This document shows positions 14,440 to 52,425 of a stretch of DNA of 64,000 nucleotides, piece after piece. Source of the DNA: Escherichia coli (lineage in GTDB: Bacteria; Pseudomonadota; Gammaproteobacteria; Enterobacterales; Enterobacteriaceae); assembly GCF_002854065.1 (NCBI RefSeq), contig NZ_CP024147.1; one strand, given 5' to 3'. The notes under the pieces were generated by a model, which ran no database searches, was not told the origin of the DNA, and was given only the letters and a program-made list of their open reading frames with translations. Numbering within the stretch: the first letter of the stretch is position 1; each line of letters starts with the position of its first letter. Position numbers and translations under genes: made by a program.

Positions 14440-14513
14440 TGGAGCGGGCGAAGGGAATCGAACCCTCGTATAGAGCTTGGGAAGCTCTCGTTCTACCATT
14501 GAACTACGCCCGC
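14440..14513 (-). tRNA. glyU: tRNA-Gly (anticodon CCC)
   Basis: Minus-strand 74-nt sequence GCGGGCGTAGTTCAATGGTAGAACGAGAGCTTCCCAAGCTCTATACGAGGGTTCGATTCCCTTCGCCCGCTCCA; cloverleaf with CCC anticodon and encoded CCA. Confidence 0.97.
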
Positions 14514-49709: not shown

Positions 49710-51227
49710 TTATTTCACCGGACGCATCGCCGGGAACAGAATAACGTCGCGGATGGTATGGCTGTTGGTGAACAGCATTACCATACGGTCGATGCCAATC
49801 CCCAGACCTGCTGTCGGCGGTAAGCCATGTTCCAGTGCGGTAACGTAATCTTCATCGTAGAACATCGCTTCGTCGTCACCTGCGTCTTTCGCGGCAACCT
49901 GATCCAGGAAGCGTTGCGCCTGATCTTCCGCGTCATTCAGCTCGCTAAAGCCGTTACCGATTTCACGACCACCAATGAAGAACTCAAAGCGGTCTGTGAT
50001 TTCCGGGTTAACGTCGTTACGACGCGCCAGCGGAGAAACTTCTGCCGGATATTCAGTAATGAAGGTCGGCTGAATCAGATGTGCTTCTGCCACTTCTTCG
50101 AAGATCTCGGTAACGATACGGCCCAGACCCCAGCTCTTCTCAACGTGGATACCGATAGATTCAGCAATCGCTTTTGCAGAGTCGAAGTTGTCCAGATCCG
50201 CCATGTCGGTTTCCGGGCGATATTTCTTGATCGCTTCACGCATGGTCAGTTTTTCGAACGGTTTACCGAAGTCCAGCGTCACGTCGCCGTAGGTCACTTC
50301 CGTCTTACCGAGAATATCCTGTGCCAGAGTACGGAACAGCGATTCGGTCAGCTCAATCAGATCTTTGTAATCTGCGTAAGCCATATAGAGTTCCATCATG
50401 GTGAACTCTGGGTTATGACGTACGGAAATACCTTCGTTACGGAAGTTACGGTTGATTTCGAATACACGCTCGAATCCACCAACCACCAGACGCTTGAGGT
50501 ACAGTTCCGGCGCGATACGCAGGTACATGTCGAGATCCAGCGCGTTATGGTGGGTGATAAACGGACGCGCAGCGGCACCGCCTGGGATCACCTGCATCAT
50601 CGGCGTTTCAACTTCCATAAAGCCGCGGTTCACCATGAACTGGCGAATACCAGAGAGGATCTGCGAGCGCACTTTAAAGGTGTTACGGGATTCATCGTTA
50701 GAGATGAGATCCAGATAACGCTGACGATAGCGCGCTTCCTGATCCTGCAAGCCGTGGAATTTATCCGGCAGCGGACGCAGTGCTTTGGTCAGTAGACGCA
50801 GCTCGGTACAGTGGATAGACAGTTCGCCGGTTTTGGTTTTGAACAGTTTACCTTTCGCGCCGAGGATGTCGCCGAGGTCCCATTTTTTGAACTGCTCGTT
50901 GTAAACGCCTTCCGGCAGATCGTCACGGGCAACGTACAGCTGAATGCGACCGCCAACGTCCTGCAGGGTAACGAAAGACGCTTTACCCATAATACGACGG
51001 GTCATCATGCGGCCAGCAACGGCGACTTCGATGTTCAGCGCTTCCAGTTCTTCGTTCTCTTTGCCGTCGAATTCTGCGTGCAATTGGTCAGAGGTATGAT
51101 CGCGACGGAAATCGTTCGGGAAGGCAATCCCCTGCTCGCGCAGGTTCGCCAGCTTCTCACGACGCGTTTTCAGTTCATTGTTAAGATCGACTACCGCGTC
51201 AGCGCCCTGTGCGTGTTGTTCAGACAT
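49710..51227 (-). CDS. lysS: Lysyl-tRNA synthetase (class II)
   Basis: 505-aa ORF with class II aaRS motifs. Confidence 0.97.
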
Positions 51228-51236
51228 GTTGGTTCC

Positions 51237-52335
51237 TCATAACCCTGCTTTCAAACTTGCTTCGATAAATTGATCCAGGCTGCCGTCCAGCACGGCCTGC
51301 GTGTTGCGGGTTTCTACCCCGGTGCGCAGATCTTTAATGCGGGAGTCATCAAGGACATAAGAACGAATCTGGCTGCCCCAGCCGATGTCGGATTTGTTAT
51401 CTTCCATCGCCTGTTTCTCGGCATTTTTCTTCTGCATCTCCAGTTCATAAAGCTTCGCTTTCATCTGCTTCATGGCCTGGTCTTTGTTCTTGTGCTGGGA
51501 ACGGTCGTTCTGGCACTGGGTCACGATCCCGGTTGGGATGTGAGTAATACGCACCGCAGATTCGGTACGGTTAACGTGCTGACCGCCCGCGCCGGACGCG
51601 CGATAAACGTCAATGCGCAGATCCGCCGGGTTGATTTCGATATCAATATCGTCATCGACTTCCGGGTAAACAAACGCGGAGCTGAACGACGTATGGCGAC
51701 GACCGCCGGAGTCAAACGGGCTTTTACGCACCAGGCGGTGAACGCCGGTTTCTGTACGCAGCCAGCCGTAAGCGTAATCGCCGGAGATTTTGATAGTCAC
51801 GGATTTAATACCCGCCACTTCACCTTCCGACTCTTCGATGATTTCAGTTTTGAAACCACGCGATTCTGCCCAGCGCAGATACATACGCTCAAGCATGCTC
51901 GCCCAGTCCTGTGCTTCCGTACCGCCAGACCCCGCCTGAATATCGAGGTAGCAGTCGGCGCTGTCATATTCGCCAGAGAACATACGGCGGAACTCAAGCT
52001 GCGCTAGTTTTTCTTCCAGGGCGTCGAGTTCAGCAACGGCTTCGTTAAAGGTTTCTTCGTCGTTAGCTTCTACAGCCAGTTCCAGCAGACCAGAAACATC
52101 TTCCAGTCCCTGTTTCATTTGGTCGAGGGTGTCGACAACGGCTTCGAGGGAGGAACGCTCTTTACCCAGCGCCTGTGCGCGTTCGGGTTCGTTCCAGACA
52201 TCCGGCTGTTCCAGCTCGGCGTTTACTTCTTCCAGACGCTCTTTCTTGGCGTCGTAGTCAAAGATACCCCCTAAGAACGTCGGAGCGTTCCGTGAGGTCC
52301 TGAATGCGATTATTTACCGGATTAATTTCAAACAT
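51237..52335 (-). CDS. prfB: Peptide chain release factor 2, with programmed +1 frameshift
   Basis: Codons 1-25 at 52335-52261 (ATG ... AGG GGG TAT CTT) then in-frame TGA; a +1 shift at CTT-T (skipping 52260) joins the 1023-nt frame 52259-51237; GGQ motif in the product ([11 protein letters not shown]). Confidence 0.95.
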
Positions 52336-52425
52336 GGTCTGATTTCTTTTATTGAGCTAGTCAAAATGCGGTGATAAGAGCGGGATTGTACCCAATCCAC
52401 GCTCTTTTTTATAGAGAAGATGACG

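Follow-up and report, generated by a model that had tools for sequence, protein, structure and literature searches.

The programmed +1 frameshift site of prfB (RF2) in a 64-kb stretch of Escherichia coli DNA: anatomy, conservation, and genetic context

Introduction

The +1 frameshift site in prfB of Escherichia coli K-12, the gene encoding peptide chain release factor RF2, was reportedly described by Craigen and Caskey in 1986 and by Weiss et al. in 1987; it has been reviewed in PMC12421855. The frameshift of dnaX has in common with that of prfB an internal stimulator resembling a Shine-Dalgarno (SD) sequence, which acts on the elongating ribosome at a slippery sequence; in dnaX, however, the shift is -1, the SD-like element stands at a longer distance from the shift site, and a downstream hairpin is needed. 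For prfB, the published consensus consists of AGGGGG, CTTT at a distance of 3 nt, and then TGA followed by C, and the premature stop was found in 8,164 of 12,753 genomes (64%) in the corresponding survey (PMC12421855). Both the +1 shift and its fall with rising RF2 have been shown experimentally for the K-12 sequence (PMC5373646; PMC12421855). Ribosome profiling of the endogenous K-12 locus gave about 28% frameshifting, and 21% with an RF2 carrying Ala246, the canonical and more active form of the protein (PMC5373646).

The current study deals with a prfB site on the minus strand of a 64-kb stretch of E. coli DNA (64,000 nt, here called the window), whose recoding signal had proved recognizable from the raw sequence alone in an earlier note. 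The site is almost certainly the canonical autoregulatory +1 programmed ribosomal frameshift site of E. coli prfB. It is an already known, textbook example that is unchanged from the reference form, and it differs from dnaX in the +1 direction of the shift, the 3-nt spacing, the use of a stop codon as the pause, and a surrounding sequence without significant local structure.

Results

Anatomy of the site

All four elements of the published motif are present at the window site (Table 1); the SD-like element, the slippery CUU, and the in-frame UGA, which the earlier note had claimed, are each found at the published spacing. The site itself, AGGGGGTATCTTTGAC, is a 16-mer on the minus strand at positions 52272..52257, read directly from the window sequence. 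Its previously given range of 52257-52273 comprises 17 nt and is correct for the site as such, but its upper end lies one base too far, at 52273, the final T of the CTT codon (Leu21) that precedes the motif. The minus-strand reading around the site is ...GAC GTT CTT AGG GGG TAT CTT TGA CTA CGA C.... The CUU codon proper occupies 52263..52261 and is followed by T52260, which completes the CTTT; this T, which had been named earlier as a possible error base, is the T of TGA and the skipped nucleotide. At the other end of the stop, C52257 also serves as the final base of GAC (Asp26), the codon with which the +1 segment begins.

Exactly one real motif match was found in the window and none in 100 dinucleotide-preserving shuffles (up to two mismatches allowed); the motif is not a chance occurrence. 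Folding of the 121 nt around the site made no stimulatory structure evident (z = -0.57), an unremarkable result that fits a mechanism needing no downstream structure. A search of positions 51000-52700 against Rfam (E ≤ 10) returned no family at the site and only a chance-level match to IS009 (14 bits versus a gathering score of 117), an absence that means that no curated model matched and is uninformative.

Table 1. Features of the prfB locus and its surroundings, in window coordinates
Feature	Position	Strand	Basis or remark
prfB zero-frame segment, codons 1-25	52261..52335	-	ATG at 52335..52333; same as residues 1-25 of the solved E. coli RF2
prfB +1-frame segment, RF2 residues 26-365, with SPF (205-207) and GGQ (250-252)	51237..52259	-	340 codons plus TGA stop
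Internal SD-like element AGGGGG	52267..52272	-	Sequence; 3 nt 5' of CUU and 6 nt 5' of the stop; consensus and spacing per PMC12421855
UAU (Tyr24) spacer codon, the predicted E-site codon at the moment of the shift	52264..52266	-	Sequence
Slippery run CUU-U, with CUU (Leu25) as the predicted P-site codon	52260..52263	-	Sequence; mechanism per PMC12421855
In-frame RF2-specific UGA stop, codon 26	52258..52260	-	Sequence
C next to the stop on its 3' side (weak context UGAC)	52257	-	Sequence; PMC12421855
lysS (lysine--tRNA ligase)	49710..51227	-	Start 9 nt past the prfB stop; downstream in the conserved recJ-prfB-lysS arrangement
Stable hairpin AAGAGCG-UGGAUUG-GGUA-CAAUCC-CGCUCUU	52376..52406	-	Fold of the 95-nt intergenic stretch, -23.4 kcal/mol, z = -3.0

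Two reading frames and their joined product

The zero-frame ORF, including its stop, extends from 52335 to 52258 and is composed of 25 codons (52335..52261) and the TGA at 52260..52258. From the GAC at 52259, the +1 frame is open for exactly 1,023 nt, up to a TGA stop at 51239..51237, and its phase is that of the mechanically listed ORF 51237..52118, just as the earlier note had stated (52259 - 52118 = 141 = 47 × 3). Across the 1,099-nt gene, the +1 frame contains only two stops, namely codon 7 and the final one, and the other frames contain 22 and 14.

Skipping of T52260 results in a 365-aa protein, and the proposed check against characterized prfB returned full-length RF2. Residues 1 to 365 of the joined protein align end to end with the crystallized E. 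coli RF2 (PDB 1gqe; E = 3.5e-240) and do so ungapped across the junction of ...RGYL and DYDAKK.... The NCBIfam model TIGR00020 (prfB) was passed with 526.1 bits at a cut-off of 370, and the models of RF1 gave 304 to 305 bits, which is under their cut-offs of 400 to 423. The SPF motif for stop codon recognition is located at residue 205 and the GGQ motif for hydrolysis at residue 250. Judged from these matches, the joined product is the class I peptide chain release factor RF2.

Recurrence of the arrangement across phyla

When species-representative genomes were scanned for exact occurrences of AGGGGGNNTCTTTGAC, with the A before GGGGG and the T before CTT fixed, at least 120 loci were returned; being based on a fixed pattern, the scan shows the motif to be a marker of prfB and is biased as a measure of how much the motif varies or how common it is. 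The phyla among the matches listed include Bacillota, Bacteroidota, Pseudomonadota, Gemmatimonadota, Myxococcota, Fusobacteriota, and others. Of the 120 matches listed, 106 have an RF2 homologue in the +1 frame that begins with GAC; these homologues have a median of 340 aa, which is also the value for the window. Another five of the 120 listed loci have recognizable prfB N-terminal peptides and are broken or cut by the end of the locus, and about nine look like chance matches. Among the 106 listed RF2 matches, TAT is the commonest spacer codon (62), ahead of TCT (27), TTT (8), and CAT (6). The prfB sites of other phyla, e.g., Bacillota and Bacteroidota, accordingly resemble the window site in motif architecture and in the size of the +1 ORF (about 340 aa), but the spacer codon is variable and the sequence of the N-terminal peptide has diverged. 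The outcome of the scan agrees with that of the published survey (PMC12421855).

A long ORF could in principle also be made without any frameshift, by independent initiation downstream of the site, e.g., at the ATG at 52118, from which the mechanical ORF list derives a 293-aa ORF (51237..52118). Yet residues 1 to 25 and residues 26 to 72 are both part of the solved 365-aa RF2 and are contiguous at the junction, the open, conserved +1 frame reaches back to the GAC at 52259, well upstream of this ATG, and the zero-frame N-terminal peptides, with their RG(Y/S)L ends directly 5' of the motif, are conserved across phyla. Given the continuity of the solved protein and the conservation of these peptides, re-initiation at 52118 was rejected, and we regard it as exceedingly improbable.

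Comparison with K-12 and conservation within E. coli

The prfB genes of K-12 MG1655 and of the window match nucleotide for nucleotide from the ATG to past the site. Common to both are the UGA at codon 26, the CUU-U, the AGGGGG with its 3-nt spacer, and the C after the stop, as well as the 365-aa product and the recJ-prfB-lysS context. Elsewhere in the gene there are 12 nucleotide differences, and the proteins differ at two residues (D91N and T246A). The window encodes the canonical Ala246 instead of the K-12-specific Thr246, and Asn91 in place of the Asp found in K-12, O157:H7 TR01, and the top PDB match 1gqe; it therefore carries a non-K-12 E. coli allele.

In a comparison set of 5,426 complete E. 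coli genomes, the 1,221-nt prfB region used as the query is present as a single copy in 5,425, and only two genomes are 100% identical over its whole length. The 73 nt centered on the site are 100% identical in 4,407 genomes; the remaining 1,018 differ at one to three positions, and the sole substitution in the site region of the aligned records is a synonymous TAC/TAT exchange at Tyr27. Each of the E. coli searches also returned one matching place on a record classed as a plasmid, and one of the 5,426 genomes had no match, which probably reflects a mislabeled replicon and an incomplete or misassigned assembly, respectively.

The formal in-frame stop at prfB codon 26 might be taken as the mark of a pseudogene that arose by a real frameshift mutation, with the RF2 function supplied from elsewhere. 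However, no stop interrupts the 340 codons of the +1 frame and just the two residues mentioned above distinguish the protein from K-12 RF2, the single prfB copy per E. coli genome means that there is no second copy to supply RF2, and the break sits exactly on the conserved recoding motif and not at a random place. With no stops or indels accumulated in the +1 frame and no second intact prfB seen, the pseudogene reading was rejected and has virtually no probability left.

Single-frame records

Three of the 5,425 E. coli genomes contain prfB in a single frame, in each case by a 1-nt deletion in a homopolymer run. In BH100 substr. MG2014 (NZ_CP024650.2; locus L004, 1266-2363), one G of the G5 run is missing, and the gene is an unjoined 1,098-nt CDS in which RGIF (RGIFDYD) replaces RGYL. 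The O157:H7 strains SS52 and SS17 (NZ_CP010304.1 and NZ_CP008805.1) lack exactly the T that is otherwise skipped (CTTGAC), and the prfB gene of SS52 (NZ_CP010304.1; locus L127, 1166-2263) is an unjoined CDS for a normal RF2 without a frameshift. All three records are probably assembly errors, which is the cheapest explanation because both deletions fall in homopolymer runs. In evolution experiments with Pseudomonas fluorescens, single-nucleotide deletions of this type arose as compensatory changes (PMC13245932), and they leave a small chance that the three genomes represent real natural lineages with a genuine loss of RF2 autoregulation. In either case the records have no bearing on the window, whose site is intact.

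The existence of single-frame records documents that indel differences at the site do occur, and the two frames of the window might in the same way have been produced by a sequencing or assembly error, i.e., by one base too many in a truly single-frame gene. The single-frame state is nevertheless confined to these three records; the two-frame arrangement is common to all others, K-12 included, and recurs across phyla. Any error is more likely to be found in the single-frame records, whose deletions sit in homopolymer runs. The near-universal two-frame arrangement effectively refutes an error in the window, to which we assign a negligible likelihood. The window has five G's and the TTT run, like K-12 and the 4,407 genomes with an identical site, so that the earlier description of the site as intact is borne out and the envisaged one-frame error does not apply.

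Annotation

A joined CDS, which had been predicted for a standard annotation pipeline, is indeed present in a 100%-identical RefSeq record, where prfB is a two-piece CDS of 1,099 nt with the note "programmed frameshift." Two-piece prfB CDSs are also present in the records of O157:H7 TR01, 13TMH22, and K-12 MG1655, and among the records examined, the "programmed frameshift" note is found in those annotated with PGAP. For annotation this means that the 25-codon and the 340-codon ORFs belong in one joined prfB CDS and represent neither a pseudogene nor two genes.

Discussion

Overall, what was observed directly at this locus (the parts of the motif and the distances between them, both reading frames, the joined protein as RF2, and the conserved state of the site) fits the view of the earlier note that this is a known autoregulatory recoding site, and no observation speaks against it. 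That the shift takes place in the window and responds to the level of RF2 can be expected from the published work on the identical K-12 sequence. Once 25 codons had been translated, CUU (Leu25) would occupy the P site and UGA the A site of the ribosome. This stop would be read only by RF2, and the C that follows would weaken it. Abundant RF2 would lead to termination at the UGA and release of a 25-residue peptide, and with scarce RF2 the ribosome would pause there. The anti-SD sequence of E. coli, which we take to be 3'-UCCUCC-5', would give five Watson-Crick pairs and one G-U pair with AGGGGG. Such a pairing with the 16S anti-SD, at the unusually short spacing of 3 nt, would stimulate the slip (PMC12421855), in which the P-site tRNA-Leu would move from CUU to UUU (+1) in competition with RF2. 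GAC would then be read as codon 26, and 340 further codons would lead to the full 365-aa RF2. Terminating at the UGA of its own gene, RF2 would therefore repress its own synthesis in a negative feedback loop. Since the window encodes Ala246, its autoregulatory set-point is probably nearer to the 21% of RF2-B than to the 28% of K-12.

With respect to the gene neighborhood, dsbC, recJ, prfB, and lysS are located on the same strand and idi on the opposite one, which is the standard E. coli arrangement. At the joint of prfB and lysS (window positions 51227-51240, TGAGGAACCAACATG), a GAGG resembling a Shine-Dalgarno sequence shares bases with the prfB stop codon, an overlap suggestive of translational coupling in the prfB-lysS operon. 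The intergenic space between recJ and prfB comprises 90 nt (52336-52425) and contains the hairpin listed in Table 1. On the plus strand, a T-run follows this hairpin, which scores there as terminator-like in antisense orientation to recJ and prfB; on the minus strand, an A-run precedes it. Possible roles are those of a recJ terminator, a bidirectional terminator, or a part of the prfB 5' leader. A simple sigma-70 scan returned no promoter in the recJ-prfB spacer and one weak match inside prfB, which is fewer than in shuffled sequences. The 64-kb window contains no 16S rRNA gene, and its sole RNA gene (ARAGORN; Rfam gathering thresholds) encodes a tRNA-Gly with the anticodon CCC at positions 14440-14513 on the minus strand.
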